A program made the position numbers and the translations under genes. Below the pieces are notes generated by a model. That model was not told the DNA's origin, did not search any database, and saw nothing but the letters and a program-made list of their open reading frames with translations. This document shows, in pieces, positions 14,510 to 37,914 of a stretch of 64,000 bases of DNA. Every line of letters begins with the position of its first letter. The stretch's first letter is position 1. This DNA is from an uncultured Acidobacteriota bacterium (lineage in GTDB: Bacteria > Acidobacteriota > Blastocatellia > RBC074), in NCBI GenBank assembly GCA_963796275.1, contig CAWCKY010000006.1, positions 64,001-128,000 on the forward strand. The letters run 5' to 3'.

Positions 14510-14648
14510 TAGCAAGCTTTAAGCCAAACGGAAATAGCTACCCGGCCTGACCGAAAGTGATTTACTTAGCTTATTTGCGAGTCGAAGCGATGATGTGGGT
14601 ATTTCTTTGCGCCCCAAGATATTGGAGCGCCCACAAATTATTGGAGGT
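14510..14648 (-). promoter_or_regulatory. Sigma54 promoter P1 plus tandem upstream activator sites (glgX-mscS)
   Basis: TTGGCTTAAAGCTTGCTA (14527-14510); CTCCAATAATT and CTCCAATATCTTGG 19 bp apart. Confidence 0.8.
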
Positions 14649-14844
14649 TATTCCACCACGAGCGCGTACCTGGCGTCATAAACGCGATCGAAGCGGCGCG
14701 CTGAAATGCTCCCGGGAGTTACACGCCTTTGAAATCTTCCTGGCTTACCAATTCGGCATGGGCGTTAAACAACCAAACTGAATGTCAAGAAGCGAGGGAA
14801 GTCTGGCTGTGATCGTCGGCTGAGCGGTGCCGAAAGCGCTTCAG

Positions 14845-16164
14845 CTAAAGCCAACCGCCACTAAATCCCGCCCGCAGCAGTCCGGCAACGACCACCGGGC
14901 AACGACGCATGATGTTCCAGAGCAGGCCGGTCCGATAGTTCTCGATCATCAGTACGATCGGCCCTTGATCGATCCCGAAGTGATACGGCGTGACCCACCA
15001 ACCAGTCGGGCTATCTGGCACAACAAACGATTGATTGAACGACGGCTTGAATCCATATTTTCTCGTCATGCCCAATTCCATTTGCGCAAAATGCTGCACG
15101 GTCGGGATGACGATTTCAGGAGCAAACGGCAGCGAGGCGATGACAACCCAAGGGGCGACGGTACCATCATCGGGACCGAATGGGGCGCCTCGAGCGAAAT
15201 AATCGAAAAACTCGCATTCGGTCCCGTTGATTGCGCGCTTTACACAACCGGGCCCGTCGCATGCTGTGAATCCCCAACAGTGTTCACCGTAGCCGACAAA
15301 ATTCATGGGATTCCGGATCGCATATTCTTGCTGTACAAACGTCGCCTGCCGGCTATTTTCAAAGTAGTCGCTGCCGTGCGCCTGCATGAACTCATCGCGA
15401 ATACCGCGAAAGTCGATCCACATATGCGAGAGTTGATGCGTGAAGAGAGGGCCCGAGTAAAGCAATTCACGTTCGTAGATTTTCCTCCACTGGTAAGTCG
15501 CGCAATAGGCGCGATAACTCTCGGGGGGCAACGAATGCGTTGGCGAACCGAGTCCGAGGATGTACAGGAGCAAGCCTTCGTCATAACCTTGCCAGCGATG
15601 TGGGATGAACCCGGTCTCCGGCGTCCAGCCATGAGTTAGAGTCGGTCCGCCATCCCGGGCCCAATTCCAATCGGCCCGTTGGTAAAGCGCATCGGCCAGG
15701 TTTCTGATCTCGATCTCGTCGGGCGTATCACGGTCGAAATAGGCGCCGACTGTCAAGGCGCCCGCGAACAGAAACGCCGAGTCGATGGTGGAAAGCTCGC
15801 ATTGCCAGACGCGGCGACCCGTTTCGATGTCCAGGAAATGGTAGAAAAAGCCTTTGTAGCCGGAGGTCTCCGGCCCGGGGCCTTGCGGGCATTCGAACAA
15901 GTAACGCAGTCGTTTCCGGGTGATCTTGGCGGCGAAATCTCGGAAGAGGACGCCACGCTCGACGACGACCGGAATCGTCGCCAGCGCCATGCCGCAAGCG
16001 GCGATACTGACCGGAGCGTTCGGATCAGTCTTGTCGCGGACCAGCCCATTGTCCGGGTTGGATTCGTGCAGATAGTACAGAACCGTGGAGAGCTGCAGCA
16101 GGGCCAGCTCTTGGTCGGTGAGCAGTCGATCGGAATCGTCGTTGGCGCAGGAAGTGTCGGTCAT
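14845..16164 (-). CDS. GH144-like (putative glucoamylase family) endo-beta-1,2-glucanase
   Basis: KGFFYHFLD, ELSTIDSA, GPLFTHQLSH, WGFTACDGP, GIDQGPI. Confidence 0.85.
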   Translation of the reverse strand: MTDTSCANDDSDRLLTDQELALLQLSTVLYYLHESNPDNGLVRDKTDPNAPVSIAACGMALATIPVVVERGVLFRDFAAKITRKRLRYLFECPQGPGPETSGYKGFFYHFLDIETGRRVWQCELSTIDSAFLFAGALTVGAYFDRDTPDEIEIRNLADALYQRADWNWARDGGPTLTHGWTPETGFIPHRWQGYDEGLLLYILGLGSPTHSLPPESYRAYCATYQWRKIYERELLYSGPLFTHQLSHMWIDFRGIRDEFMQAHGSDYFENSRQATFVQQEYAIRNPMNFVGYGEHCWGFTACDGPGCVKRAINGTECEFFDYFARGAPFGPDDGTVAPWVVIASLPFAPEIVIPTVQHFAQMELGMTRKYGFKPSFNQSFVVPDSPTGWWVTPYHFGIDQGPIVLMIENYRTGLLWNIMRRCPVVVAGLLRAGFSGGWL

Positions 16165-16181
16165 AGGTCAGTTGCTCTCCG

Positions 16182-19100
16182 TCAGCCCAATTGCACGCGG
16201 ACGTTGTGTGTTTTCGAGTCGTCGCTTAGCGGCACCGTGTCGTTCGGCAATCGCTGACCGTCCAACTCGACCGATCGGACGCCGCGACCCGTGCCAGCCG
16301 AGTTGTCCACCTGAATTCGGTAGGTAGCGGACAGATGGCGATAGCTCATTTCAAATCCCGGCCAGCTCGGCGGGATGCATGGCTCGAAACGAAGTGTGCC
16401 GCCCCGCAATTGGAAACCAAGAATCGTCTCAATGGCGACGCGGTAGAGCCAACTCGCCGAGCCGGTGTACCACGTCCAGCCGCCGCGGCCCGTGTGTGGC
16501 GGGGCGCCATACACGTCGGCGCAAACCACATACGGCTCAACTTTGTAATGCTGCACCTCCTCAGCCGTCGTGGCGTGGTAGACCGGGTTGATGAGGTTCC
16601 ATAGTTCCATGGCGCGGTCGCCATGACCCTGCAACGCCGTCGCCAGGGCAACCCAGGTAGCGGCATGTGTGTATTGACCACCGTTCTCGCGGATGCCCGG
16701 CACATATCCTTTGATGTAGCCGGGCTGAAGGGCGCCTTTGTCGAACGGCGGGTCGAATAGCTGGATCAGTTTGTCGCCGATACGCACCAGTCGTTTTTGA
16801 ACCGCGTCTATCGCCGATTGAGCCCGTGCCGGGTTGGCTGCTCCGGAAATGACCGCCCAAGCCTGTGGGATGGCGTCGATTTGGCACTCATCGTTTTGAG
16901 CAGATCCCAAGGGAGTGCCGTCATCGAAATACGCTCGGCGGTACCACGCGCCGTCCCAGGCATTCGCCTCCAGAGCAACCCGCAACTGCTCGGCTCGCTC
17001 CCGGCACCAATTTGCATCGTCGGCCTGGCTGCGACCGATCAGCCAATTCTGCAAACGCGTTCAACACGCTGATGAAGAACCACGCCGTTCCAAACGCTCT
17101 CGCCCTTTCCGTGGACGCCCACCTTATTCATGCCGTCGTTCCAATCGCCGGTGCCCATGAGAGGCAATCCGTGGGAACCCAACCGATAGCCGTGCTTCAG
17201 CGCGCGAACGCAGTGCTCGTATATGGTGCCAGTCTGCTCGCTCACTGCGGGCAAGTTGAAGTCTTCTTCCTGTTCTTCGCGAAGCACCGGCGACGTGATG
17301 AACGGCACGACCTCATTTAACAAGTCCGTGTCGCCTGTCGTCACAACATAGTGGTGAACCACTAGGGGCAAGAAATAGAGGTCATCGGTGATTCGCGTGC
17401 GAACGCCGATCCCGGACGGCGGGTGCCACCAGTGCTGGACATCGCCCTCCTCGAATTGCCGTGCCGCCGATCGCAAGATCTGCGCACGCGCCTCTGCCGG
17501 AGCGCTGTAGACCAAAGCCATCACATCCTGAAGTTGGTCGCGAAAGCCGTACGCTCCGCCGGATTGGTAAAACGCAGAGCGGGCCCAAACGCGGCAAGCC
17601 AGAACCTGATAAATAAGCCAACGGTTGAGCATCAAGTCGATGCCCGGATCGGGCGTAGTCACGTGCAACGCATTTAGATAACGGTCCCATTGCTGATGCA
17701 CCTGCGCCAGTGCCGCATCGGCTCGATGGGGTTCTGTGTATGCACTAATGAGTCGATGAATCTCTTCCAAGCTGTCCGCCTGACCCAAGGCAAAAACCAC
17801 TTCTTTCGTCTCGCCAGGAGACAGCGTCACTTCCGTCGTCATTGCCGCGCAGGGATCAAGGGCCGGGCCGGCGCGGCCGGATAGCCTGACGCGCCGCAGG
17901 GCGGCGGGCATGGAAATCGAGCCGTGTTCCCCCAGAAATTCCGTACGATCTGCGGTGACTGACTGCGTCGGCGAACCACATGCCACGAAGGCGATCTTCT
18001 CGGCGAAGTTGCCGGCCCAAGCATTCCGCGCCAATATCGCGGCGCTCTCCGGATCGCGCTCGCAGACGACTTGCAGCGGAGCGTTTTCACGAGCCGATCC
18101 AAGAGTCCATTCGGCGTAGTACGTCGCCGACAAGCGCCTTGGGCGATCGTCGTCATTTCGCACAGTCAGGCACACCAACTTAATCGGATCGTCGGTCGGA
18201 ACGAAAACCAAAAGCTCTTGATTGAGATTACGACTGACATGGGTGTAGCGAGTGTAGCCTTGGCCGTGGCGGACAGTCACCGGTGCCCCAGGCCCCAGCG
18301 GCAAGGGCGTGGGCGTCCAGAAATCACCAGTTTCCTCGTCGCGCAAATAGACCACTTCACCTGGCTGGTCCGAAGTCGGATCATTCGACCAGGGAGTGAG
18401 GCGGTTCATTTGACTGTTGCCTGCCCAACTGTAGCCCAGACCAGCCTCTGTCACTAGACATCCGAACCGCGGATTGGCCAGCACATTCGTCCAGGGAGCT
18501 GGCGGCAACGCTGGTCCGATCTGTGAAGTGCCGTCGATGACGATCACGTACTCGCGGCCATCAGAGGTGAAACCTCCGAAGCCGTTCCAGAAACTCAATC
18601 CTTCAGGTTGTCGAGCAGCCGGTCGGGTGGGCTGCGCGACAGGCTTTGTCGCGACCGCACCGGGAGCGAATTGCGGCGGCGGATCGGGCCGTGGGGCAGC
18701 GCGATGATCGATCTGCTCGGCCAGTGATCCGCGATCACCGACAAGCACAGCCCGCGCGGCGGCTGCGAGCAGGACCGCATCATCGGCCGGCACTTTGTCC
18801 GCAGTCAGAAAGAACACGCCGCCCGACTTGCCGAGCATCTCGCCGGCAATCCCCGTTTGGAGTTCCGTGCGTAACCGTTCGGCAGGTTCGCCGGCACGCT
18901 CGTCCAGGATCACGAGATCCACATTCAATCCGCGTCGGCGCGTATAGATGCGCCACTTGACGAGTTGCCGAACGATCCTCTCATCGCCGACCCGAGCGAC
19001 TCGGGCCAGCACGATCGGGAGGTCACCGGAAATGGAGTGCGGCCACAGGCCCGGCTGCCCCAGCCGGTTGGCGGCCACGGCATCAAGGTCGCGAAGACCG

Positions 19101-20041
19101 GAGTTCGTGAACACGACGGCCGCCGCCAGCCGGTTGAACAGGGCGATATCGTCCGGCGTGAGCTCGAGCTCCTGTAGTTCGCTCTGGCAGTGGGCTTTGG
19201 CGCCTGCAAATGCCTGGTCGATCGCCTCGAATTCGCGGAATTGTTCGGCAATTCCGATGGCGCCTTCACGCGTGTCAGCCGCTCCGGTCACGAATGCGAT
19301 GCGAGTCGTCATTCCCGGTTCGAGCCCGACGCGCCGGCGCAAGCTGAAGATCGGATCGAGCACCGCGCCGGTGGTTCGCGACAAGCGAGACCCAGGATCC
19401 AACGCGGCGGGATTGGCCGGCGTGCGACCGCGTCCGAGAAATCTCATTCGGTCCGTCTCGTAATCAATCTCGTCACTGGCCGAAACGCTCGCCGCCGAAG
19501 TGTGAATCGCCCAGACTGGATGTTCGTTCGCGCCGCGGGGGCGGCGTCGGGCCAAAAGCGCGCCGTACTGGGGATCGAATTCCGTCTCCAGGAATAGCTT
19601 GGCAAAAGCAGGGTGGGCCTGATCGGCCCGACGGTCATTCAGGCACACCTCCGCATAGCTCGTAAGCTCGACTTCGCGATGGCGAGGGCCGTGATTGACG
19701 AGCGTCACCACGCGTACCTCGGCATCTGCATCCGGCACGACACAAACGGCACAGCGGGTCTCGACGTCGCCATCCCGTCGACGGAACTCCGCGCGGTCGG
19801 CGTGAAACTCGATGTCAGATTCATCAGCGGCCCGGCACAACGGTTGACTTCCAATCGACCACAAGCTGCCGTCGCTGAGGTCACGGACGTAATAGAACTG
19901 ACCCCAGCAGTCGCGCGTGGCATCTTCGCGCCAGCGTGTTACATCCAGGCCGCGCCAGGTGCTGTAGCCAGCGCCGGCGTTCGTGATCATCACTCCGTAC
20001 GAGCCATTGGAAAGCAGTGCTACCGTAGGTTGCGATCTCAT
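16182..20041 (-). CDS. GH94 glycoside phosphorylase (Cgs/NdvB C-terminal type, beta-1,2-oligoglucan), split by two 1-bp insertions near 17085 and 17035
   Basis: LLSNGSY, APWTNVLAN, YQSGGAYGFRDQLQD, GDWNDGMN, ENGGQYTHAA, WYTGSASW; intermediate frame reads AWFFISVLNAFAELADR. Confidence 0.88.
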
Positions 20042-20098
20042 TTATTCTCCGTCCGACATTGGAAACATGCTGAGGCTCGGCCCGCGGTCACGAGCGCA

Positions 20099-20124
20099 CC
20101 ATTACTCCACTAGTGGAATAATGG
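20099..20124. promoter_or_regulatory. 26-bp loopless palindrome upstream of the GH94 start
   Basis: CCATTAcTCCACTAGTGGAaTAATGG. Confidence 0.4.
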
Positions 20125-20326
20125 CTGCTGGTTCGTACCGCAGCAGAGCACATAAATTGTTCTCGATCTGCAGCTCGCGCGCTGCCTTCTTGACGGGTAG
20201 TACGCGGGCAAATTTCGCTGAATGGGCATCTTGACCTCGTCTTCATCGATGGCATGACGAAGATCGAAGTCACCAAACACTTACTGAGCATAGACGGTTT
20301 CATTGTTAAATCTCCCAATACACATG

Positions 20327-20484
20327 TAGCAAGCCTCGGTCCAAATGAATAACTCTGCTGAGGCATTAGGTAGGGATTTCACAAGAAGCTATTTAACTCT
20401 TTATACTTGCGAGGTGAGTCAGATTGATGATTAACCGATTGGATGCTACGAAATGTTGGAGCTTCCCCTTAAATATTGGAGACC
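20327..20484 (-). promoter_or_regulatory. Sigma54 promoter P2 plus tandem activator sites (GH94-GH144)
   Basis: TTGGACCGAGGCTTGCTA (20344-20327); GTCTCCAATATTTAAGGGGAAGCTCCAACATTTCGTAGCAT. Confidence 0.8.
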
Positions 20485-20565
20485 CTCCTGGTGAAATCAA
20501 GATAATCATACTTCGATAGTACTGCGGTTTTAAGACGAGTATGCAGGGTTGAAGATTGCAAAGCT

Positions 20566-20745
20566 TTTGGAGTGCGGTTGCTTGCTTGGCTTGGGATGCC
20601 GCTGGTGATTTCGTTTTGGACAGCAAATCAGTACCGCGAGCGGTAGCGAGCGTGGCTCTCGCAAAGGATTTACGCCGGAAGTCACGCTCGCTACCGCTCG
20701 CGGTACTGATTCGCCAGCAGTATCGCTTGCTTGCAACCGCTTTGG
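20566..20745. repeat. Nested REP-like elements
   Basis: Perfect 29-bp IR (20626-20654/20683-20711) inside a split GGAGTGCGGTTGC...GCAACCGCTTTGG palindrome; GCTTGCTTG on both sides. Confidence 0.8.
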
Positions 20746-20810
20746 TAGTCATATTCCGCGATCCGGGATTTTCGACCTAACTCACCTCACACCCCTCCAC
20801 CACTGACTAC

Positions 20811-21093
20811 CATCTTCACGCGGATCAAGTGGGTAGATACAAATGACGACCAGTTCGATCTCAGCGGCAGCTGGTGGTTAAATCTGAGCTCTAACCTCAA
20901 ATTTGGTAAAAAGAGCGTGGGAAGTTCCTGGTTACTTATGGCGAGGGTATCGAGAACTACATGCGAGAACTACATGCTCACTACATGAATGATGCGCCGG
21001 TGGACGTCGGCATCAAGAATAACGTTCAGAATCCAGTCGCGCCGATCAAGGGTGGCCTTGCCGGCACTGGGCATCGTCGCATTTTTGGATCAC
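20811..21093 (+). pseudogene. Degraded internal fragment of a DcaP-like outer-membrane porin
   Basis: Pieces in shifting frames: RIKWVDTNDDQFDLSG, NLSSNLKFG, VTYGEGIENYM, YMNDAPVDVGIKNN, ALPALGIVAFLDH. Confidence 0.55.
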
Positions 21094-21103
21094 AAAATTG
21101 AAT

Positions 21104-21243
21104 ATGTGCGGAAGGGAAAGACCGCGTAAACGCGGAACTCCAAGCGAATTCTTAAACGCGATGTTCGGAGTTCCGCCTTCGGGCGGTCAGAAATCATGTG
21201 CGGAAGGGAAGACCGCGTAAACGCGGAACTCCAAGCGAATTCT
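21104..21243. repeat. BIME-like REP cluster
   Basis: Two ~48-bp direct repeats containing ACCGCGTAAACGCGGAACTCC flanking an inverted GGAGTTCCGCCTTCGGGCGGTC. Confidence 0.8.
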
Positions 21244-21274
21244 GAGGATTGATTGCTCGAGATAGAAGGAAAAA

Positions 21275-21413
21275 GTCTCCAATATTTGAGGGGTGCTCCA
21301 ATATTCCGTAGCATCAATCGATTGCCTCCAACACTGACTTGTCTCGCAAGTATCGAGAGTGAAATCACTTCCTACCGGCGTGAGTGAGTTGTTCGTTTGG
21401 ACTGAAACTTGCA
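21275..21413 (+). promoter_or_regulatory. Sigma54 promoter P3 plus tandem activator sites (atp operon)
   Basis: GTCTCCAATATTTGAGGGGTGCTCCAATATTCCGTAGCAT; TTGGACTGAAACTTGCA at 21397-21413. Confidence 0.82.
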
Positions 21414-21493
21414 GATTCCAGCTGATGAAAGACGAAGTCAAAATGCGCAAAGCCTATTCGGCGAAGCTTGCCGGCATACTATCAGCATACTAA

Positions 21494-22705
21494 ATGCTGT
21501 CTGCGTCAGGTTTCGTCATTTTGCAGGAGATGATCGGATGCTTACCGTTTCGCGAGAATCTAGAGTACATCGGCGCCGCGCCAATCGCGGGCGATCCGCT
21601 GAGAGCCCGGGAGCGCGATCTTGGGCCGGGTGAACGCGTGATCTTCGAGAAGCCCGACTACGAGCGCACGAACCCGGTTGCAGCATGTTACCGGGGCGCG
21701 GTGCGTGATACCGCCCGCGATGATGCCAGGCTGTTTCTTTGGTTGAAGGCTCAGTGGGGCTGGCTGCTCTTGATCGCTTTTTTGGTGAGTCTGGGCGCCC
21801 ACTCGACGTTCGCAATGGATGCCGGTGCCGAAACCGCTCCCGCGTTGTTAGCCGTTGATGCCCAACCGGGGGGACCGGTGGCAGTACCAGAAGTAAAAAA
21901 ACACGGCTTACCACAAGAAGCCGTCGAGATCGCCCGTCTCTTCGACTTCCCGATCACCAATTCTATGATCGTCAGTTGGATCGTTGCGCTTGGTCTCATC
22001 ATCTTTGCCCAGGTCGCTACGCGGCGCATGAAGCAAATTCCCGAGGGATCACAGAACTTTTTAGAATGGCTTGTTGAAAGCCTGCACAACTTTCTCGCTG
22101 GGATACTGGGTCATCACCTGGTCAACCGGACGTTTTGGTTTTTTGCGACTATTTTCATTTTCATTCTCTCTGCCAATTGGGTCGGTCTGATTCCCGGCGT
22201 AGGCGCGGTTGGTTGGGGACACGAAACCTCAGATGGCTTCAAGATCGATCAACCGTTGTTCCGCGGCGCCAATGCCGACGTCAACATGACACTGGCCATG
22301 TCGCTTGTCTTCTTCGCCTGCTGGATCGTCTGGGCTATACAGGAGCATGGTCCGCTCGGATTTCTGAAGGAACTGTTCGCGCCCAAGGGCGAAAGCACCG
22401 GACTATTGAAGGTGCTACTGGCAGTTGTGTTCTTCGCAGTCGGGTTACTTGAAATCATCTCCATTTTGTTCCGGCCGGTCTCCTTGAGTTTTCGTCTTTA
22501 CGGCAACATTTTTGCCGGTGAGAACATGTTGGAGACCATGACCAAGCTGGTCCCGGGCTTTGGCTGGTTGATACCGATCCCATTTTATTTTTTGGAGTTG
22601 CTCGTAGGCCTGGTCCAGGCGCTGGTCTTCATGTCGTTGACAGCGGTCTTCACGCTGTTGATTTGCCAGCATGAGACTGAGGCGCCTGCGGCTACGCATG
22701 TTTGA
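21494..22705 (+). CDS. atpB: Fo subunit a with N-terminal extension (true start probably downstream of 21494)
   Basis: ITNSMIVSW, FRPVSLSFRLYGNIFAGE, ELLVGLVQALVF. Confidence 0.93.
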   Translation: MLSASGFVILQEMIGCLPFRENLEYIGAAPIAGDPLRARERDLGPGERVIFEKPDYERTNPVAACYRGAVRDTARDDARLFLWLKAQWGWLLLIAFLVSLGAHSTFAMDAGAETAPALLAVDAQPGGPVAVPEVKKHGLPQEAVEIARLFDFPITNSMIVSWIVALGLIIFAQVATRRMKQIPEGSQNFLEWLVESLHNFLAGILGHHLVNRTFWFFATIFIFILSANWVGLIPGVGAVGWGHETSDGFKIDQPLFRGANADVNMTLAMSLVFFACWIVWAIQEHGPLGFLKELFAPKGESTGLLKVLLAVVFFAVGLLEIISILFRPVSLSFRLYGNIFAGENMLETMTKLVPGFGWLIPIPFYFLELLVGLVQALVFMSLTAVFTLLICQHETEAPAATHV

Positions 22706-22772
22706 AATCATGACTTTCGCCGGCTCGACAGCGTTCGATCGCGGAGTCGGCCAGAAAAGGAGAGTTAACCAG

Positions 22773-22961
22773 ATGGGCGAAAATGTATACATAGGTATGA
22801 CGGCTATTGGAGTAGCTATTGCCGTGGGTATGATCGGCTATAAGGCTTGTGATGCGGTCGGACGCAATCCCGAAGCATCCACCAAGCTTCTGGTCCAGTC
22901 TATCCTGGCCATTGCCTTCGCTGAGGCGATCGTGTTTTACGTGTTGTTCCTTGTGAGATAG
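22773..22961 (+). CDS. atpE: Fo subunit c (62 aa)
   Basis: AGGAG RBS; AVGRNP loop; AFAEAIVFY with the conserved Glu. Confidence 0.92.
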   Translation: MGENVYIGMTAIGVAIAVGMIGYKACDAVGRNPEASTKLLVQSILAIAFAEAIVFYVLFLVR

Positions 22962-23013
22962 GGACCACAATATCGACGCCGCCCTGGCGTTTTAGCTTGG
23001 CGAGGGTACGACT

Positions 23014-23592
23014 ATGAATGTTCTTGTCATACTGGCACAAGCGGGTAGTGAGGGGCAGATTCAACAGATTGCCAGAACCTTTGGCGTGGACTGGCCTCAT
23101 CTGATTGCACAGGTCATCAGTTTCTCCATCGTCTGCCTTCTCCTTTACAAGTTTGCCTACAAAAAAATTCTTCAGATTCTCGATGAACGCCGACAGGTGA
23201 TTGCCGAGAGTCTGGCCAACTCCGAGAAGATAAAAGTCGAGTTGGCGCGGACCGAAGTTCAGCGTCAGGAATTGATGGTGCAAGCCAATGTACAGGCAAA
23301 CCAGTTCATAGAAGAAGCTCGTCGCGCCGCCGCGCGCCTACAGGAGCAGGAAACTCGGAAGGCCATGGCCGCCGCCGAAGCGATCATAGTCAACGCGCGT
23401 GAGTCCGCCGCGCAGGATCACAACCGGATGCTTGCCGAACTCAAACAGGAGGTCGGCCGATTGGTGGTGCAGACGACTTCAGTAGTCACCGGTAAGATTC
23501 TGACATCGGAAGATCAACGGCGCCTGGCTGAAGAGACTACCATGCAATTGAAGGACGGAATGAATATACAAGCTCGAGGAGGACCAGGGTGA
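23014..23592 (+). CDS. atpF: Fo subunit b
   Basis: N-terminal TM, ILDERR, coiled coil; operon position. Confidence 0.92.
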   Translation: MNVLVILAQAGSEGQIQQIARTFGVDWPHLIAQVISFSIVCLLLYKFAYKKILQILDERRQVIAESLANSEKIKVELARTEVQRQELMVQANVQANQFIEEARRAAARLQEQETRKAMAAAEAIIVNARESAAQDHNRMLAELKQEVGRLVVQTTSVVTGKILTSEDQRRLAEETTMQLKDGMNIQARGGPG

Positions 23593-23981: not shown

Positions 23982-24067
23982 ATCGCTACAGCGAAACGAG
24001 TCGCAGACGTAGCCGGGTAAGGATGCGATTCTTGGGATAGCGATTGGTTGATTGAGGGGAAAAACAG

Positions 24068-25600: not shown

Positions 25601-25606
25601 AGACTT

Positions 25607-26473: not shown

Positions 26474-26498
26474 TATAAGGCAACTATGGCTAAAACAG

Positions 26499-28062
<1,564 letters not shown>

Positions 28063-28114
28063 GGGAAATGGGATGGCAGCGCGACCGATAAAAGCGATAG
28101 AGAGGACTAGATAC

Positions 28115-28525
28115 ATGGCCAAGACGTTAAAGTTGCAAATCATCACGCCGGACGCTACCGTTTACGATGACGACGTGGAGGTAGTTATGCTGCCGAGCGT
28201 CGGGGGCCAGATAGGTATTCTGCCTCACCACGTCCGACTGATGACCGTAATGGTACGGGGCGAAATGATCGTGCGCAAAGACGGCCGCGCTCATTTTCTG
28301 GCCGTAGGCGAGGGGCTTGTGGATGTGACCGGCGATCGCGTATCGATCCTGACGGATATGGCCGTGGCGGTCGAAAACATTGATGAGGCCAGGGCCGAAG
28401 AAGCGCGCCAACGGGCTGCGGCCCAGCTCCGCGATAAGCTTTCGGCCGAAGAAGTGGCCTCCGTAAATGCGGCTTTAGCTCGGTCGCTCACACAGTTGCA
28501 CGTTAAGCGACGCCGGCGGGTATGA
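28115..28525 (+). CDS. atpC: F1 subunit epsilon
   Basis: LQIITPD, GQIGILPHH, C-terminal helical hairpin. Confidence 0.95.
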   Translation: MAKTLKLQIITPDATVYDDDVEVVMLPSVGGQIGILPHHVRLMTVMVRGEMIVRKDGRAHFLAVGEGLVDVTGDRVSILTDMAVAVENIDEARAEEARQRAAAQLRDKLSAEEVASVNAALARSLTQLHVKRRRRV

Positions 28526-28781: not shown

Positions 28782-28907
28782 GTCTCCAATATTTGAGGGG
28801 GACTCCAATATTCCGTAGCATTCATTTTCCGGTCGTTCCGACTCGCCTCACAAGTATAGAGATTTAAATCACTTCCTTAGGGCTTGTTGTTTGGACTGAA
28901 GCTTGCA
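28782..28907 (+). promoter_or_regulatory. Sigma54 promoter P4 plus tandem activator sites (RND-ppk2-PP2C)
   Basis: GTCTCCAATATTTGAGGGGGACTCCAATATTCCGTAGCAT; TTGGACTGAAGCTTGCA at 28891-28907. Confidence 0.82.
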
Positions 28908-29116
28908 ACTTCTGGTTGCGGAGCAAGTCTGCATCTTGATCTGACCAGTTCCGGCAAACCGTTTTGAAAGAATCGCCAAAATGCGAACTGATCGTCGAAC
29001 AATCCGGACCTGAGCGCCATACCTTGGGGAACCCGGTTAGCATAATTTGAAGACGTTTAAAACTCCGGAGTCTGCCGGAGCCTGGTTGATACGTTAAGGA
29101 GGCTGAAGGAGGCAGA

Positions 29117-30436
29117 ATGATACGAACTAAAGTATCAGTACAAAGCTCGATGAGTTTGCTTATTCTCGCCGTCTCGCTCGTCGGCTGTAGCAAAACCAAT
29201 AAAGCGGAGCAGGGAACTGCTCCAGCGGTCGAAGTCTCAGTGATCGAAGTCCAGCCGGAGACCGTGCCGATCTACACCGACTTCGTCAGCGAAACCTACG
29301 CTCGCGATGAAGTTCAGGTGCGCGGGCGTGTGGACGGTTACATCGAGAAACGGCTTTTCACACCCGGTTCATATGTTAAGGCCGGCCAGATTCTCTATAT
29401 CCTCGACCTGCGTCCATATCAGGCCGATGTGGCGAAGGCCAAAGGTGATCTGTCGGAGACCCAGGCGAACCTGACTTTCGCCAGAGAACAGGTCGAATTG
29501 ATCGAGGCCGAGGCGCAACTGGCGCAGGCAGAAGCCGAGCTGATCAAAGCGAAGAATGACGTGTCTCGTCTGACTCCACTGGTTAAGGAGGAGGCCGCGC
29601 CCAAGCAAGATCTTGAGAATGCCATCCAGACGCAAGCGGCGGCACAGGCCAACTACAACGCCAAAAAAGCCAATGTCGACCAGAAACGCCTCACCACGCG
29701 CGTTCGGGTTGATGCAGCCCAGGCGCAGGTGGATGCGAGCAAGGCCACCATGGATCAAGCCGAATTGAACCTCGGTTATGCAACGATCCGCGCCCAGATC
29801 GGCGGGCGCGTAGGCGATTCAGAGATCGAGGTAGGGGGCCTGGTGACGAAAAACTCCCCACAGCCACTAACGACGATCGTGCCGCTCGATCCGATCTGGG
29901 TCAGGTTCCAGGTCAGCGAAAGCGAGTACCTCAAATTTCGCGGGGAGGTTGCACGAGGGGCCCGGGCGAGAAATTACTTCGCTTCCATCCCAATCCAGTT
30001 GATCACCGCCAATGGGGAGATTCATCCCCAAAAGGGGAAGATCCAGAATACGCTCAACCGCGTTGACCCGAAGACCGGCTCGCTCGAGGTGCAAGCTACT
30101 TTCCCCAATCCGACAAGAGATATCCTCCCCGGCCAGTTCGGGCGAGTGCAGATTCAGACCGAGGAGCGGCAGGATGTGATGCTGGTGCCGCAGCGCGCAA
30201 TCCAGCAGCTGCAAAACATGCGGACGGTGTTTGCGGTCGACAGTGACAACAAGGTAGTAGCGCACACCGTCGCGACCGCCGAACGCGTCGGTGATCGTTG
30301 GATCATCCAGCAGGGCTTGAAGCCGGGCGATCGCATAATTGTCGAGGGGATGCAGAAAGTCCGCCCCGGCAGCACAGTCAAGCCTAAGCCCTATCAACAA
30401 GTAGCGGAAGCGGCGAGCAAAGAAGGGAGCAAGTGA
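29117..30436 (+). CDS. RND efflux periplasmic adaptor (MFP), lipoprotein
   Basis: LVGC lipobox, VRGRVDGYI, long hairpin, ILPGQFGRV, VPQRAI. Confidence 0.93.
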   Translation: MIRTKVSVQSSMSLLILAVSLVGCSKTNKAEQGTAPAVEVSVIEVQPETVPIYTDFVSETYARDEVQVRGRVDGYIEKRLFTPGSYVKAGQILYILDLRPYQADVAKAKGDLSETQANLTFAREQVELIEAEAQLAQAEAELIKAKNDVSRLTPLVKEEAAPKQDLENAIQTQAAAQANYNAKKANVDQKRLTTRVRVDAAQAQVDASKATMDQAELNLGYATIRAQIGGRVGDSEIEVGGLVTKNSPQPLTTIVPLDPIWVRFQVSESEYLKFRGEVARGARARNYFASIPIQLITANGEIHPQKGKIQNTLNRVDPKTGSLEVQATFPNPTRDILPGQFGRVQIQTEERQDVMLVPQRAIQQLQNMRTVFAVDSDNKVVAHTVATAERVGDRWIIQQGLKPGDRIIVEGMQKVRPGSTVKPKPYQQVAEAASKEGSK

Positions 30437-30439
30437 GTA

Positions 30440-33400
30440 ATGGCTAAACTCTTCATCAACCGCCCGGTCCTGGCGATGGTCATGGCCATCGTGATCACGC
30501 TCCTGGGCGCAATTTCCTACTTCATACTTCCGCGCGGTCAATATCCCGAGATCGTTCCGCCGCAGGTCAAGGTCAGCTGCACATTCCGCGGGGCCAGCGC
30601 GGAGGATGTAGAGAAGACCGTAGCGCAGCCGATCGAGCAGCAGTTGATAGGCCTCGACGGCCTTCTCTATTTCAGTTCCAACAGCGCCAACGACGGTTCA
30701 TACACGATGTATGTTACATATGAGCTGGGCACCGACATCGACATGGCCACAGTCAAGACGCAGAACAAGGTCAATATCGCACTGCCGCTGCTGCCCGAGG
30801 AGGTCAAGCGCGAGGGCGTGACCGTGCAAAAGGTCTCCTCGGCGATCCTGCTCGCCGTCGGGCTCTACTCGCCTGATGGACGCTATGACGACCTCTTCCT
30901 GGGTAACTATGTGACGATCAATTTTCTGCAGCGGATCGGAACCCTGCCCGGCGTGGGGGACGCGCGTCTCGGCTCGGTGCGCGACTATGGGATGCGCGTG
31001 TGGGTCAACCCGGATAAGCTGACGAAGCTCGGCCTGACGGCGACCGACGTCAAGAACGCCATCAGCGAACAGAACCGGCAGAACCCTGCCGGCCAAATCG
31101 GCCAGCCGCCGATCCCACAGGGGACTGATTTTCAATATCCGGTAAACGCAGGCGGACGTTTGCTGGAAGCTGACGAGTTCTCCAACATCATTCTACGCGC
31201 CAAAGCAGACGGCTCGATCTTGCGCATCAAGGATATCGGTCAGGTCGAGCTTGGAGCGGTTGACTACCGGACCTTCAGCCGGATCAACGGCAAGCCCGGG
31301 GCGCTGATCCTGATCTATCTCGCGCCGGGCGCGAATGCGATTGCGACGCGTGATGCCGTGGTCAATCTCATGGAGGAGCAGAAGAAGAACTTCCCGGCCG
31401 GGATCGAGTACGCGATCTCATACGACACGACCGACTTTGTGCGAGCCTCGCTCGAGGATGTGGTCCACACCTTCTTCGAAGCCCTTATCCTGGTGATCAT
31501 CGTCGTCTTCGTCTTCCTCCAGAACTGGCGGGCGACGCTCATACCGCTGTTGACGGTTCCAGTCTCAATAATCGGAACCTTTGCCCTCTTTCCGGCGCTC
31601 GGTTTCACGGTCAATACCATCAGTATGTTCGGCCTGGTGCTTGCCATCGGAATTGTGGTTGACGACGCGATAGTCGTGGTCGAGGCCGTGCAGCACCACA
31701 TTGACCACGGCATGAGTCCGAAGGAGGCGACCTTCAAGGCCATGGAGGAGGTCTCGGGGCCGGTGGTCGCGATCGCTTTCATCCTCGCGGCGGTCTTCAT
31801 GCCGGTCGCCTTCATGGGCGGTATTTCAGGACCGATCTACCGGCAGTTTGCACTGACGATAGCGGTCTCGGTGCTGCTCTCGGCTTTCAGCGCGCTCACG
31901 CTCAGCCCGGCGCTCAGCGCGCTCCTGCTCAAGCCGGCGGGTGGGAGTCGCGGTCCGCTGGCCAAATTTTACAATGGTTTCAACCGCGTCTTCGGCTGGA
32001 CGACCGATCGCTACATGATCGGGGGCGCGCTTACTGATTCGGCGGTTCGTGCTCGCGGCCATTATTCTCCTCGTCTTCTTCATCGGGACCTACGGGCTTT
32101 TCAAAATAACGCCTGGCGGGTTCCTGCCGTTTGAGGACCAGGGCGCGTTCTTCGTTATGGTGCGGCTGCCGGACGGCGCTTCGCTCGAGCGCAATGATGC
32201 GGTGCTCAAGCGGGCGGAGGAGATACTCCTCAATACGAAGGGCATCAAGTTCGTCAATACCCTCGGCGGTTACGACCTGATCAACCAGATCAACAACATG
32301 AATATCTCCTCTTTTATCGTGGCCCTTGAGCCCTGGGAGGAGCGACATGCACCCGATCTGCAAATCGAGAGCATCGTTGAGAAAGTGCAACGGCAGTTCA
32401 ACGGGATCGAGAGCGGGATGGTGTTGGCCGTCAATATGCCGCCAATTCTGGGGCTCGGCAACGGCGGCGGGTTTGAGCTTTGCGTCGAGGATAGGGCCGG
32501 GAGGGATATCGACGATCTTTACAATGTGACGCAGGAGCTGATCGTCACTGCATCGCAGCGGCCGGAGTTAACGCGCCTGTACACGCCCCTGCGGGTCACG
32601 GTCCCCCAGATCAGAGTTGAACTCGACCAGGACAAGGCGAAGACGCGTGGCATACCGGTGACCAACGTCTACGATACGCTGCAGACCTTCCTCGGCGGTC
32701 TATATGTCAATGACTTCAACGCCTTTGGCCGGACATGGAAGGTCATGATGCAGTCCGCGCCCGAATTCCGGCGAACCCCGGATGATATCAAGAATTTTTA
32801 CGTCCGCGCGGGGGACGAAACGATGGTGCCGCTCTCGACGCTGGTCACCGAGGGGACACGAAGCGGGCCGGAGGTCGTCTTCCGATATAACAGCTTCCGC
32901 GCGGCGAAGATCAGCGGCGATGTCAAACCGGGCTACAGCTCGGGGCAGGGGAACGCCGCAATGGAGGAGACGGCGGCCAAGGTGCTCCCCTCAGGCTTCG
33001 GCTACGAGTGGACCGGAACGGTCTTCCAGCAGAAGAAGTCGGAAGGCAAGGAGCCCTTCATTTTCGGGCTGGCCGGTCTGCTCGTGCTGCTCTTCCTGGC
33101 CGCGTTGTACGAGAGCTGGTCGATCCCCTTTGCCGTGCTACTCTCGGTACCGATCGGCATCTTCGGCGCCATGCTCGGGCTATGGTCGACTGGCCTGAAT
33201 TACGACATCTATGCACAGATCGGGATTATCACCCTCATCGGGTTGGCGGCGAAGAACGCGATCCTGATCGTGGAGTTCGCCAAGATGCGCCGGGAAGAAG
33301 GGCGCGGAGTGGTTGAGGCGGCGACCGATGCGGCGCAATTGCGGTTGCGGCCGATCCTCATGACCTCGTTCGCCTTCATCCTAGGGTGTATCCCATTGAT

Positions 33401-33617
33401 CATAGCATCGGGGGCGGGCGCCGGCGCGCGCACCGCGCTCGGCACTGGAGTCGTCTGGGGCATGACGATCGCGACCTGCGTCGGGGTATTTATCGTGCCG
33501 ACGCTCTATGTGTTCATACAGGGAACGACCGAACGCTTCTCCCGCAAAGCCCAAAAGACAGCCGAGGCGACGACCCGGAAGGCTTCGGTTGAGGGCCCTT
33601 CTCACGTCGGAGATTGA
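30440..33617 (+). CDS. HAE1-family RND permease, split by a +1 frameshift in the G5 run at 32021-32025
   Basis: FINRPV, GIVVDDAIVVVE, GLAAKNAILIVEFA, RLRPILMTSFAF; removing one G fuses the two ORFs. Confidence 0.9.
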
Positions 33618-33620
33618 AAT

Positions 33621-35030
33621 ATGAAAATATGGACAATCGTGTGTTTGACCATCGCCCTGCTGCTTGCGGGCTGCAAGATAGGGCCAAACTACAAACGGCC
33701 GCAGGCGCCTATGCCGGCCGAATACCGCGCAGCCGTCCTGGATCCGAACCGACCGCTTGCGGCGAGCCTGGCCGATACCAAATGGTTCGACCTGTTTCAG
33801 GATGATCAGCTCAAGGCTCTGATCCAGACGGCTCTCGAGCAGAACTACGACCTGCGGATCGCCTCTGCGCGCGTGCTTCAGGCGCGGGCGCTCTACGGTA
33901 TTACGCGCTCCGATCTCTTTCCGACGGTCAACGCGGATGTCGGCGCCATCTCGTTTCGGCCTTCGGAGAGCGCCCGGTTCGCTTTTCCGGACCCCTTCAC
34001 CGCCGGAACCAGCAATTACACCAGCCTCGGCCTGAGCCTGGGCTGGGAAATTGACGTGTGGGGTCGCATTCGGCGGTTGACCGAAGCGGCCCGGGCTGAG
34101 TACCTCGCTCAGGAAAATGTGCAGCGCGGCGTCATCACGACTCTGGTGGCCGATGTCGCGAGCGCCTATTTCGATTTGCGTGAACTTGATCTCGAGCTGG
34201 AGATTGCGCGCAGCACGCTCGCGACTCGTGAGAAGGGGTTGCGGTTGACGACGGCGCGACGCGACTATGGGGTAGATAGCTCCCTCGCAGTGCGCCAGTC
34301 CGAAGACCTGTTGTACTCGGCAACGTCCCAGATCGCGCGGATCGAGCGGCAGATCGAGCAGAAGGAGAATCAGATCAGCCTGCTGGTGGCTCGGAATCCA
34401 GGAGAGATTGTGCGCGGAAAGCCGCTGAATGATCAATACATCCCTCCGGCAATTCCCGCCGGATTGCCCTCGTCGTTGTTGGAGCGGCGGCCGGACATCA
34501 GGGAGGCGGAGCAGAGTCTGATCGCCGCCAATGCGCGCATCGGGGTGGCGAAGGCTGCCTACTTCCCGCGCATCACGCTGACCGGATTTCTGGGCACAGA
34601 GAGTCAAGACCTCGGCAATCTATTCACGGGACCGACGCGCGCCTGGGATTTCATCGCGAATGCATCGACGCCGATCTTCAACGCCGGAAGGATCAAATCC
34701 GGAGTCAAGTTCTCCGAGGCCGCCCGGCAAGAGGCACTGGTGCGCTACGAGCAGTCGATCCAGACAGCCTTCCGTGAAATCTCGGACGCCTTGATCGGTT
34801 ACACCAAGACGCGCGAGGAGCGCACGCAGCAGGAGCTGGTGGTCAGGGCGCGCGCGGAGGGCAGACGTCTCTCCGAACTCCGCTGGATTGGCGGACTAGA
34901 CAGTTACCTCCAGGTACTGGATGCAGATCGAACTCTCTTCGAGGGACAGTTGCAGTTGGCACAGTTACGGCGCAACGAACTGCTGGCCGTCGTCGAGGTG
35001 TATCGCGCCTTGGGCGGGGGTTGGCAATAG
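33621..35030 (+). CDS. Outer-membrane efflux factor (NodT/OprM family)
   Basis: LLAGC lipobox, WEIDVWG, ERRPDIREAE, YRALGGGW. Confidence 0.94.
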   Translation: MKIWTIVCLTIALLLAGCKIGPNYKRPQAPMPAEYRAAVLDPNRPLAASLADTKWFDLFQDDQLKALIQTALEQNYDLRIASARVLQARALYGITRSDLFPTVNADVGAISFRPSESARFAFPDPFTAGTSNYTSLGLSLGWEIDVWGRIRRLTEAARAEYLAQENVQRGVITTLVADVASAYFDLRELDLELEIARSTLATREKGLRLTTARRDYGVDSSLAVRQSEDLLYSATSQIARIERQIEQKENQISLLVARNPGEIVRGKPLNDQYIPPAIPAGLPSSLLERRPDIREAEQSLIAANARIGVAKAAYFPRITLTGFLGTESQDLGNLFTGPTRAWDFIANASTPIFNAGRIKSGVKFSEAARQEALVRYEQSIQTAFREISDALIGYTKTREERTQQELVVRARAEGRRLSELRWIGGLDSYLQVLDADRTLFEGQLQLAQLRRNELLAVVEVYRALGGGWQ

Positions 35031-35042
35031 TCAATTCAAAGG

Positions 35043-35867
35043 ATGGAAGCCATGGGAAAAAAGAATAGCAATAACAATAACGACAAACCTGAGTTCAGTC
35101 GCAAGGAATACGAAAAGGAATTGGAGCGGCTACAGGTGGAACTCTGCAAACTACAGGAGTGGGTGAAGCACAAGGGACTGCGGGTAATCATCGTGTTTGA
35201 AGGGCGCGACGCAGCCGGCAAGGGAGGAACCATCAAGGCGATTATGGAGCGCGTCAGTCCACGCATCTTCCGTCTCGCGGCCCTGCCCGCCCCTTCAGAC
35301 CGTGAGAAAAGCCAGATGTATATGCAGCGTTACATCCAGCATTTTCCCGCGTCCGGAGAGATCGTCATCTTCGACCGCAGCTGGTACAACCGCTCCGGGG
35401 TTGAATATGTCATGGGCTTTTGTACCGCTGAGCAGCATGATCGTTTCCTCAAACTCTGTCCGGAAATCGAGGAATACATCGTGAACGGCGGGATCATTCT
35501 GATCAAGTTCTGGCTCGAAGTCAGCAATGAAGAGCAGAAGCGTCGCTTCGAGGCGCGTATCGATGACCCGCTCCGACAATGGAAATTGAGCCCGATGGAT
35601 ATGCCGTCCCGCGAGAAATGGTATAAGTACTCGCGCGCTCGCGATATGATGCTCGAGGCCACAGACACCGAATTCGCGCCGTGGTACATCGTACCCTCCG
35701 ATGACAAGCGGCGCGCGCGCCTGAACTGCATCTCGCATTTGATTAGTCTGATCCCCTACAAAGAGGTTACCCGGCCTAAGGTCAAACTCCCAATGCGGTC
35801 AGAAAAGGGGGCATACGACGACCAGGCCGCTCTCAATGGAAGACAATTTATCCCGGAAAAATATTGA
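35043..35867 (+). CDS. ppk2: Polyphosphate kinase 2 (class I-like)
   Basis: FEGRDAAGKGG, FDRSWYNR, RQWKLSPMD. Confidence 0.95.
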   Translation: MEAMGKKNSNNNNDKPEFSRKEYEKELERLQVELCKLQEWVKHKGLRVIIVFEGRDAAGKGGTIKAIMERVSPRIFRLAALPAPSDREKSQMYMQRYIQHFPASGEIVIFDRSWYNRSGVEYVMGFCTAEQHDRFLKLCPEIEEYIVNGGIILIKFWLEVSNEEQKRRFEARIDDPLRQWKLSPMDMPSREKWYKYSRARDMMLEATDTEFAPWYIVPSDDKRRARLNCISHLISLIPYKEVTRPKVKLPMRSEKGAYDDQAALNGRQFIPEKY

Positions 35868-35916
35868 CAGGCGCATCTCGGATCGATCCAGACGGGGGAA
35901 CGGCGGCTGAAACTGT

Positions 35917-37311
35917 ATGAGCCCCGATGCAATTCAATCCAAAGCCTTCCAACGCGCGGCTCTGAAGAGTGAGTCGTACCGTATCCTCGGATTGCTGTGC
36001 GTCTTGGGCGGATTGTTCCTTTACGCGATAGCTCGCGGTGCCGTTACCGGTGAGCTGCGACTCCTCCTCACGCAAATCCTGCTGCTTGCTGTCGCGGCCG
36101 GCTTTGAAGGAGGGATGTTGCTGATCGTGAGAAGAGCGGTCCGATTGGAGCGAGACCTTACGCCTTCAGTGTGGCTGGTCATGGTGTTGGTTGAGACGCT
36201 TCTTCCCACGATCGCTATTTTCATGCTGACCGAAAGCCGGTATACCACTCCGTACCAGGCGCTCGTCGCGCCGGTTGTCCTCGTCTATTTCTTTCTCATT
36301 ATCCTTACAGCGCTTCGGCTGAGTCCTTATCTCTCCTTGTTGACCGGTCTCTTTTCCGCATTGGGTTATCTCGCTGCCACATTCTATATGCGCTGGCAGT
36401 ACCCAAATCCTGACGCCAGTAGCGGCGTGTTCCCCATGGCCATCTATGTCATGTATGCAGTCTCGATGCTCATTGGCGGAATTATTGCAGCCTTCGTGAC
36501 CGGGCAGATTCGGATTCATGTCTCTGCGGCCTTGCGCGAAGCCGAGTTGCAACGCAAGCTCGAGCGGATGAACCACGACCTTGGCATCGCGCGTTCGATC
36601 CAACAAGGACTGCTGCCACGTCATTCACCCGAGCTCACTGATTTCGAGATTGCCGGCTGGAATCAACCTGCCGACCAGACCGGGGGCGACTACTTCGACT
36701 GGCAGGCGCTGCCCGATGGACGACTCGCCATCAGCCTCGGTGACGTGGCCGGCCATGGCATCGGACCCGCGCTGGTGACCGCGGCGTGTCGAGCTTATGC
36801 GCGCGCCAGTTTTCTAGCCGATGGTGATCCAGCCACCGTGCTGAAGCGCCTCAATCAGTTGCTGGCTGAGGACCTTCCCCCGGACCGGTTCGTCACCTAC
36901 GCGGTCGCTTTGCTCGATCCAATCGGGTCAAAACTACAGCTGCTCTCTGCAGGCCACGGCCCAATCCTGTGGTACAGGCCTGCCACGGATGAAATCCGGA
37001 ACCTTGATGCCCAGGGCATTCCATTGGGCCTGATCCAGGGCATTGAGTACGGCCATCCTACGGAGACGCCTCTCGCTCCGGGGGACATGCTCGTGTTGGT
37101 AACTGATGGCTTCTACGAATGGGAGAATCCCCAGGGTGAAGAGTTCGGATTGACGCGGCTTCAAGAGGTGATTCGGGAGTCGTGCGATTTTCCAGCCTGT
37201 GAGGTAATTCAGCGGTTGTACTCAACCTTAATGAACTTTTGCCAGGGAACTGAGCAAAAGGATGATCTGACCGCGGTCGTTCTCAAGCGGAAGGTAGAAT
37301 CACCCAATTGA
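35917..37311 (+). CDS. Membrane-bound PP2C/SpoIIE-family Ser/Thr phosphatase
   Basis: About 6 TM segments then TGGDYFD, GDVAGHG, VTDGFYE, DDLT. Confidence 0.92.
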   Translation: MSPDAIQSKAFQRAALKSESYRILGLLCVLGGLFLYAIARGAVTGELRLLLTQILLLAVAAGFEGGMLLIVRRAVRLERDLTPSVWLVMVLVETLLPTIAIFMLTESRYTTPYQALVAPVVLVYFFLIILTALRLSPYLSLLTGLFSALGYLAATFYMRWQYPNPDASSGVFPMAIYVMYAVSMLIGGIIAAFVTGQIRIHVSAALREAELQRKLERMNHDLGIARSIQQGLLPRHSPELTDFEIAGWNQPADQTGGDYFDWQALPDGRLAISLGDVAGHGIGPALVTAACRAYARASFLADGDPATVLKRLNQLLAEDLPPDRFVTYAVALLDPIGSKLQLLSAGHGPILWYRPATDEIRNLDAQGIPLGLIQGIEYGHPTETPLAPGDMLVLVTDGFYEWENPQGEEFGLTRLQEVIRESCDFPACEVIQRLYSTLMNFCQGTEQKDDLTAVVLKRKVESPN

Positions 37312-37353
37312 TATCCATTCCATGACACTGATATTACGGGTGAAGCGGAAAGA

Positions 37354-37490
37354 CCTCCAATATTTCGTGGCTAACCCAATATCTTGGGTTACAAGGAGCC
37401 CTTCTACTTTTTAATCCGACTCGCAGGTGATTGTGTTCAATAGCTTTTCCACTTTTTCCCCTGGTCTTCTCCTCGGCTCAAAGCTTGCTA
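37354..37490 (+). promoter_or_regulatory. Sigma54 promoter P5 plus tandem activator sites (fermentation operon)
   Basis: CTCCAATATTTCG and ACCCAATATCTTGGGT 19 bp apart; TCGGCTCAAAGCTTGCTA with GG at 37475. Confidence 0.75.
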
Positions 37491-37903: not shown

Positions 37904-37914
37904 GGGGTGCTTTG

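Follow-up and report, generated by a model that had tools for sequence, protein, structure and literature searches.

The 64,000-nucleotide window analysed here, positions 64001-128000 of contig C6 in the genome of an uncultured Acidobacteriota bacterium (G000; 9.46 Mb, 7 contigs, GC 53-55%), holds five operons that each follow an intergenic promoter module of one shared design. In all five modules, P1 to P5, two CTCCAAYAWT sites are followed by a CTCGCAAG box and then by a sigma-54-type -24/-12 box (GG-N10-GC), over a length of 140-170 bp (Table 1). We propose that these regions are enhancer-dependent promoters of a sigma-54 regulon driven by a bacterial enhancer-binding protein (bEBP), here termed bEBP2, possibly together with its neighbour bEBP1; from the sequence evidence set out below, we consider this reading likely.

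An earlier, sequence-only reading of the window had described five GG-N10-GC boxes with tandem sites upstream, the distal one standing 109-139 bp away from the GG, and a partly conserved middle segment, and all of these were recovered. The boxes lie at every position and on every strand that it claimed, exact and one-mismatch matches to CTCCAATATYT pair 19-20 bp apart in 5/5 places, the first site stands 121, 139, 122, 109 and 120 bp from the GG in P1 to P5, respectively, and the middle segment (GACTCGCA..GTAT..AAATCACTT) is found in each module. Its description of the sites as quasi-palindromic holds only weakly, since what stays invariant is CTCCAAYAWT as a direct repeat, with 3' halves that vary between site 1 and site 2 and among promoter subgroups. 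TGG-N8-TTGC alone is not enriched in the window (12 observed, 9.7 expected), and the evidence is therefore the composite of sites and box. CTCCAATATYT with at most two mismatches occurs 38 times in the window against 22.3 expected, a count that 0/100 shuffles reached. The -24/-12 box of P5 has CGG in place of TGG. By alignment, similarity among the modules spans from about 2 nt before site 1 to about 8 nt past the GC, beyond which the flanks are unrelated.

The sequence-only reading had also offered the middle segment as a possible IHF bend site, and this part is not supported: across 21 modules the best spacer match to the E. coli consensus averages 2.24 mismatches, no better than the 2.50 in shuffled spacers, although the IHF of other lineages may differ in its consensus. 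The genome encodes four HU/IHF-family proteins, one of which just reaches the IHF-beta cut-off (115.9 against 115 bits), the others falling below it. Because the middle box is conserved across genera it is probably functional, and its partner could be a bending protein of other specificity, bEBP1, or a repressor.

Table 1. Promoter modules, the operons behind them, and the regulator locus on contig C7. Plain coordinates refer to the window; L032 is G000:C7:136001-156000. Bit scores are those of the covariance model R1; ORF, open reading frame.
Feature	Coordinates	Strand	Description
Module P1	14501-14653	-	site 1 14631-14646; site 2 14612-14627; middle box 14555-14583; -24/-12 box TTGGCTTAAAGCTTGC 14512-14527; 98.8 bits
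Module P2	20318-20488	-	site 1 20471-20481; site 2 20451-20461; -24/-12 box TTGGACCGAGGCTTGC 20329-20344; 88.9 bits
Module P3	21270-21422	+	site 1 21277-21287; site 2 21296-21306; middle box 21336-21370; -24/-12 box TTGGACTGAAACTTGC 21397-21412; 99.1 bits
Module P4	28778-28916	+	site 1 28784-28794; site 2 28803-28813; middle box 28840-28874; -24/-12 box TTGGACTGAAGCTTGC 28891-28906; 86.4 bits
Module P5	37347-37498	+	site 1 37355-37365; site 2 37374-37384; middle box 37418-37447; -24/-12 box TCGGCTCAAAGCTTGC 37473-37488; 85.5 bits
P1 operon	9598-14447	-	36-codon ORF 14340-14447; GlgX-type debranching enzyme 12139-14268; MscS-family channel 9598-12132
P2 operon	14845-20041	-	GH94 glucan phosphorylase in two overlapping frames, 17039-20041 and 16182-17054; PF10091 glucanase-like protein 14845-16164
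P3 operon	21494-28525	+	complete second F1Fo ATP synthase: a, c, b, delta, alpha, gamma, beta, epsilon
P4 operon	29117-37311	+	RND efflux pump (fusion protein, AcrB-type pump in two frames, outer-membrane factor); PPK2 polyphosphate kinase; SpoIIE/PP2C phosphatase
P5 operon	37544-49120	+	small ORF; acetate kinase (from ATG 37916); pyruvate formate-lyase activase; glycogen phosphorylase; transaldolase; phosphoketolase; GAPDH; L-lactate dehydrogenase
bEBP1	L032 2015-4966	-	983 aa, GAF-PAS-PAS-AAA+-HTH (helix-turn-helix), GAFTGA loop, HTH_8
bEBP2	L032 5721-7766 (G000:C7:141721-143766)	+	681 aa, PAS-GAF-AAA+-HTH, GAYTGA loop
Inverted tandem site	L032 7813-7851	inverted	~170-210 bp upstream of the CGG-N8-TTGC box preceding the ABM gene
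Module C7a	L032 9088-9233 (C7:145088-145233)	-	-24/-12 part lost to the 3' end of the DUF4136 gene
Full module	L032 13522-13678	-	precedes the DUF3300-DUF2950-OmpA operon
Tandem site and one more single site	L032 16789-16837		between the peptidase S46 gene and the gene of an 877-aa protein of no known family
Middle box and -24/-12 box of the 877-aa gene	L032 16520-16590	-	the gene's own boxes

The module in the genome and in relatives

Searched with an nhmmer profile of the tandem site, the 9.46 Mb genome yields nine copies (E 1.4e-8 to 4.3e-4, with the next match at E=1), five of them in the window and four within C7:143.8-152.8 kb, and all nine are intergenic. A strict IUPAC pattern finds seven sites and its reversed control pattern none. 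The motif is thus not a repeat strewn across the genome: its copies lie at operon starts and at two loci only. The idea that one activator co-induces the whole island is amended in two ways: the regulon is not a single island, with four further enhancer copies on C7 beside two candidate activators, and the one activator may be a conserved pair. The broader claim of the sequence-only reading, that these are sigma-54 promoters with a shared enhancer and an activator encoded outside the window, is borne out as far as sequence can take it. On C7, module C7a looks like a relic. The 877-aa gene has an inverted tandem site upstream of its -24/-12-like box, and in both G000 and its relative G010 the ABM gene is likewise preceded by a conserved -24/-12-like box that has an inverted tandem site some 170-210 bp upstream of it; in a third genome, G023, the ABM gene shows the same inverted layout with GG-N11-GC spacing.

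We ran R1, a sequence-only covariance model of the module, on 41 relatives and then on all 87 genomes of the family, and found the module in 4/87 genomes and 3/17 genera: G000, G008, G010 and G023. A single weak partial match was seen in G002 (E=0.007). The comparison panels include an unpublished genome, G004, and a panel of 400 genomes of the class also includes G357 and G373; only negative or paralogue-level results come from these three. Among 25 module matches aligned (21 of them full-length modules), conservation is concentrated at site 1 (CTCCAAYAATTCGTGG), site 2 (CTCCAATAT..TGG), the CTCGCAAG box and the promoter (TTTGGCTCAAAGCTTGCCA), and across genera the consensus of site 1 is CCTCCAAYAATTCGTGG and that of site 2 is GCTCCAATATCNTGGGG, at a start-to-start distance of 19 bp. 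The box [T/C]GG-N8-TTGC is kept in 19/21 full-length modules from the four genomes. Spacing is similarly constrained: 19/26 modules have their GG 118-124 bp from site 1, the tandem pitch is 19 +/- 1 bp, and 6/7 of the distance outliers are shifted by about 11 bp, a pattern which suggests that the helical face matters, related modules being non-independent observations. An exact-pattern scan of metagenomes added 10 contigs with a module, two of which (L165 and L173) look identical, and in 8/10 there is a -24/-12 box at a distance of 121-134 bp.

Modules lie ahead of ORFs and are oriented toward them, and the genes that follow them recur. DUF3300-DUF2950 lies downstream of a module in all three relatives, and DUF3300 in all four genomes; other downstream genes in the relatives encode DUF4136 proteins, DcaP- and OmpA-like outer-membrane proteins and a sortase operon. 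The metagenome modules precede DcaP, DUF3300 and OmpA genes, and one stands beside a DUF4136 gene. For one regulon protein, the closest clusters in a protein atlas come mostly from Acidobacteriota, a hint at the lineage. In G008 the targets include a serine dehydratase (sdaA)-pta-ackA-pfl operon and a glgP-phosphoketolase (xfp) pair, and fermentation genes are thus members of the regulon in a second genus. G023 carries a full module (L071 17966-18107, on G023:C19) between the ABM gene and the bEBP2 orthologue, pointing at the 3' end of the latter, where it could be a source of an antisense or small transcript; at the matching place in G000 the tandem site alone survives.

Candidate activators and rival readings

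Sigma-54 promoters, whose consensus is TGG...TTGC, require a bEBP for activity. The sequence-only reading had hinged on the presence of rpoN, and the gene is there (PF04552 match of 198 bits in a 548-aa frame, C3:1419712-1420188). A profile search of the genome places the bEBP domain PF00158 at 60 places, none of them inside C6:64001-128000, and about 45 full-length bEBPs are encoded. Two of these, bEBP1 and bEBP2, are encoded by divergent genes at the C7 locus. bEBP2 (PF00158 at 234 bits, AAA_lid_14, and HTH_8 at residues 632-675) has orthologues of 66-77% identity only in G010, G008 and G023 among the 41 genomes searched; all other matches are at most 59% identical and lack the first ~250 residues, which comprise the PAS domain and part of the GAF domain. 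With the sensor part (residues 1-340) as query against 400 other genomes of the class, the GAF part is matched at 47-56% in three, again G008, G010 and G023, and one further match, in G172, reaches 31%. Orthologues of bEBP2 and bEBP1 stand side by side, among modules, in 4/4 module-bearing genomes, both proteins tracking the module across genomes. Their loops read GAYTGA in 4/4 bEBP2 orthologues and GAFTGA in 4/4 bEBP1 orthologues and are otherwise near-identical. For both activators the best NCBIfam model is FhlA, at 393 and 417 bits against a cut-off of 830.

We favour bEBP2 as the activator that binds the sites, because its orthologues track the module and adjoin modules, and because of a metagenome contig, L170. 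Here a DcaP gene follows a module, and divergently from this module runs the gene of a bEBP2 orthologue at 64% identity, with the GAYTGA loop and an HTH of the same kind; the 2.2 kb of sequence on the bEBP2 side hold no bEBP1. By sequence alone the two proteins are not separable in this role. A search of genome contigs with bEBP2 as query gave only paralogue-level matches, the best at 50% over residues 141-679 and the rest in the AAA+ domain only.

The alternative that survives best, which we regard as distinctly improbable, is that the tandem sites are read by bEBP1, acting by itself or as the partner that binds DNA, with bEBP2 serving other promoters or only modulating bEBP1. Its orthologues adjoin bEBP2 and the modules in 4/4 genomes, it has the canonical GAFTGA loop with HTH_8, and one of its PAS domains is FixL-like and keeps the proximal-histidine position. 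The arrangement on L170 speaks against it, as does the absence of the FixL-like GAF-PAS insert of G000 bEBP1 from the G010 and G008 orthologues. A close bEBP1 paralogue on C6 outside the window (C6:261520-264309; 929 aa, GAFTGA, 68% identity over the C-terminal 356 residues, similar HTH) also has no CTCCAA site nearby; a separate sigma-54-like box lies by it at C6:265842.

Some other regulator might instead bind the sites, either another of the ~45 full-length bEBPs or the LuxR-type response regulator that, with a HisKA_3 kinase, adjoins bEBP1 in G000. Adjacency is no proof of binding, and the size of the bEBP repertoire leaves room for this view; yet bEBP2, with bEBP1, alone tracks the module and adjoins modules, the flanks annotated around the clusters of the relatives showed no such LuxR pair, and a sigma-54 promoter needs a bEBP; we give this alternative only slight weight. 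Finally, that the modules are a dispersed or mobile repeat without regulatory role, or that the promoters are not sigma-54-dependent, fits the copying evident among P2, P3 and P4 (at least three modules arose in this way) and the two copies that have no -24/-12 box, but is very hard to square with nine copies only in 9.46 Mb, with the lack of terminal inverted repeats at P1, P3 and P4 (the modules checked) and the unrelated flanks, with conservation across genera of only the functional boxes, or with the GG spacing held in most modules and the GG-N10-GC retained in nearly all full-length ones.

Several observations weigh against the bEBP2-driven regulon as we propose it. bEBP1 co-occurs with the module as well as bEBP2 does; the co-occurrence covers three genera only, G010 and G023 being congeners; and the four module-bearing genomes are 74-95% complete assemblies resembling metagenome-assembled genomes, with frameshifts. 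That of G000 is 94.7% complete with an estimated contamination of 5.2%, and the window and the regulator locus lie on separate contigs of it. The bEBP2 loop, GAYTGA in L170 too, deviates from the consensus GAFTGA, and two modules, C7a and one on G010:C20, have no -24/-12 box. G001, a genome of the same genus, has ATPase and DUF3300 genes without modules and without bEBP2. As for the sensor domains, G000 bEBP2 has an arginine at the FixL proximal-histidine position, with a histidine following three residues on, bEBP1 does not keep the distal arginines of FixL, and the L170 orthologue of bEBP2 has no PAS domain.

Under the bEBP2 reading, each module would offer two binding sites for a bEBP, with the -24/-12 box about 120 bp from the first site and the conserved third box (CTCGCAAG.AT) between the tandem sites and the promoter. 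We infer that an activator bound to the tandem sites, most likely bEBP2 and perhaps joined by its conserved neighbour bEBP1, would reach the sigma-54 holoenzyme by looping and use ATP hydrolysis to open the promoter. A conserved core of the regulon would lie at the regulator locus, with the DUF3300-DUF2950 operon, DUF4136, the ABM protein and the OmpA- and DcaP-like outer-membrane proteins, and in G000 the window operons would belong to the regulon as well. Their products would convert glycogen and beta-glucan to sugar phosphates, and these through phosphoketolase to acetate, with ATP gained by acetate kinase, and to lactate, with lactate dehydrogenase re-oxidising NADH; the second F1Fo ATPase, PPK2 and the efflux pump would be supplied alongside. 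We infer that the regulon would come on when respiration fails, at low oxygen or low energy charge.

A signal of oxygen or redox state fits this gene content, and we put it forward tentatively, as a possibility that falls somewhat short of even. When the PDB was searched by sequence, the PAS domain at residues 50-168 of bEBP2 and one at residues 391-514 of bEBP1 most resembled the FixL and DosP haem PAS domains, with E down to 1.8e-11 and 2.5e-17, respectively; for bEBP2, one histidine-kinase PAS domain of unnamed ligand outscores FixL and DosP. The position of the FixL proximal histidine, in the F helix, is kept in G000 bEBP1 and in G010 bEBP2. We treat the putative haem PAS domains as a weak lead. 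A bolder picture, and one we think unlikely to hold in full, would make bEBP1 and bEBP2 a co-evolved pair, GAFTGA with GAYTGA, that forms a mixed ring as HrpRS do, senses oxygen or redox state by means of FixL-like PAS and GAF domains and switches the cell to a glycogen-burning phosphoketolase survival mode with a dedicated second F1Fo ATPase, the regulon growing as a 150-bp enhancer-promoter cassette is copied to the front of new operons.

Predicted target operons and probable growth of the regulon

Gene functions in the window were assigned from Pfam and NCBIfam models. In the P5 operon the pyruvate formate-lyase activase (TIGR02493) and the L-lactate dehydrogenase (TIGR01771) both exceed their cut-offs, and the transketolase at 50030-52111 may also belong to this operon, whose 3' limit is provisional. 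The GH94 and PF10091 families of the P2 operon include beta-1,2-glucan enzymes. Further copies of several window genes lie elsewhere in the genome, with atpD at 69% identity on C7, atpA at 56% on C3, glgP at 79% and glgX at 74%, and the window copies are therefore extra ones. The ATP synthase a subunit (21494-22705) has an N-terminal extension of about 150 residues, its Pfam match starting at residue 158. Both the GH94 gene (16182-20041) and the gene of the AcrB-type pump (30440-33617) occupy two overlapping frames, from a frameshift or an assembly error; the pump is uninterrupted (1051 aa) in G001, and split genes occur in module-bearing relatives as well. Just before acetate kinase, a 60-codon ORF (37741-37920) resembles by eye the N-terminus of a phosphotransacetylase, and G008 has an intact pta at the matching place.

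The modules within the window are themselves related. P2, P3 and P4 are mutual nearest relatives (68-77% identity) and carry site variants unseen in other genera, and for P1 the closest modules are those of the sortase genes in G023 and G010 (66-72%). In G001 (87% complete) the ATPase operon, at 76-82% DNA identity, directly follows the RND outer-membrane-factor gene with no module between them. With filters off, R1 gave no module match close to the ATPase and DUF3300 genes in G001 or to the second DUF3300 copies in G023 and G008, and no bEBP2 orthologue was found in G001. The wiring is therefore young or was transferred. Because P2 to P4 are near-copies and G001 differs in these ways, the regulon seems to have recruited the ATPase, GH94 and RND operons recently, through copies of a single cassette.

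Other features of the window accompany these operons. A direct repeat of ~48 bp with one indel (21104-21152 and 21196-21243) lies immediately upstream of module P3, and palindromic intergenic elements lie between P2 and P3 (20625-20713) and between atpG and atpD (26501-26624). Both palindromic elements match many places on both strands in G001, G002, G019 and G013, and they resemble a repeat family of the repetitive extragenic palindromic (REP) or miniature inverted-repeat transposable element (MITE) type. The 910-bp gap between ldh and the transketolase gene holds an identical 18-nt hairpin with a 10-nt tail in inverted orientation at 49283-49310 (+) and 49894-49921 (-), about 600 bp apart. 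An Rfam scan of the window gave no match. Among sequencing runs searched with window positions 14000-23900, no RNA run containing this DNA was listed, and the DNA runs listed had shares of at most 0.13. A DUF4135 protein at the left edge (3-1535), and a type I polyketide synthase (KS-AT-KR-ACP, 1575 aa) followed by a nonribosomal peptide synthetase condensation domain (57633-64000), have no link to the regulon.

Comparison with known systems and significance

As a type, the system described here is well known; neither its site sequence nor the regulon nor the pair of activators is described in the literature we searched. Classical sigma-54 promoters with tandem activator sites include those served by NtrC at glnAp2, NifA at the nif promoters and NorR at norV. 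Like the modules, these pair a GG-N10-GC box with at least two sites for the activator, placed about 100-150 bp upstream, and the activator is an AAA+ protein whose C-terminus carries a Fis-type HTH; the inverted sites before the ABM gene may extend the likeness to independence of orientation. They differ from the modules in that the site sequence here is new, the regulon content is different and the middle box departs from the E. coli IHF consensus. A literature search found none of the three longer motif strings, and a 9-mer appeared, among the matches listed, in unrelated papers only. Searches on DUF3300 and DUF2950 returned papers that look unrelated by their titles and the opening of their abstracts, and a search on sigma-54 and enhancer-binding-protein regulons in Acidobacteria gave nothing on the present system among the matches listed.

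Three regulatory systems invite closer comparison. The FhlA formate regulon of E. coli shares with ours a GAF sensor, several target operons and a link to fermentation, but the activators here fall under the equivalog cut-off and so are not members of that family, there are two of them rather than one, their targets are glycogen use, phosphoketolase and ATPase genes, and we saw no hydrogenase or formate dehydrogenase genes. The HrpR/HrpS pair of Pseudomonas syringae forms a co-dependent hetero-hexamer in which HrpS always carries GAYTGA and is active and HrpR carries a near-consensus GAFTGV (PMC3105312). The likeness lies in tandemly encoded paralogous bEBPs, here an adjacent pair, one with GAYTGA, in four genomes. 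The bEBP1 and bEBP2 genes are divergent in G000, L170 has bEBP2 without a neighbouring bEBP1, and both proteins carry large GAF/PAS sensor regions, which HrpRS are not known to have. If the signal is oxygen, there is also a likeness to hypoxia or energy-stress regulons of the FixL-FixJ/FixK and DosR/DosS type, in the FixL/DosP-like PAS domains and in the fermentation and reserve-mobilisation targets; unlike those two-component systems on sigma-70 promoters, the present one would be a one-component sensor-activator, with putative haem binding, acting through sigma-54.

We know of no sigma-54 activator with a known target in this soil lineage, and the analysis supplies a concrete, testable regulon for these uncultured bacteria, for which the motif, the target operons and a candidate activator, bEBP2, can be given. 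The proposed regulon ties a complete second ATP synthase and the fermentation of reserve polysaccharides to sigma-54, a combination that would be a plausible survival route for soil bacteria in anoxic or energy-poor spells. The same-genus ATPase operon that lacks the cassette, together with the three near-copies in the window, points to recent rewiring, in which a regulon may have grown by duplication of a promoter cassette.

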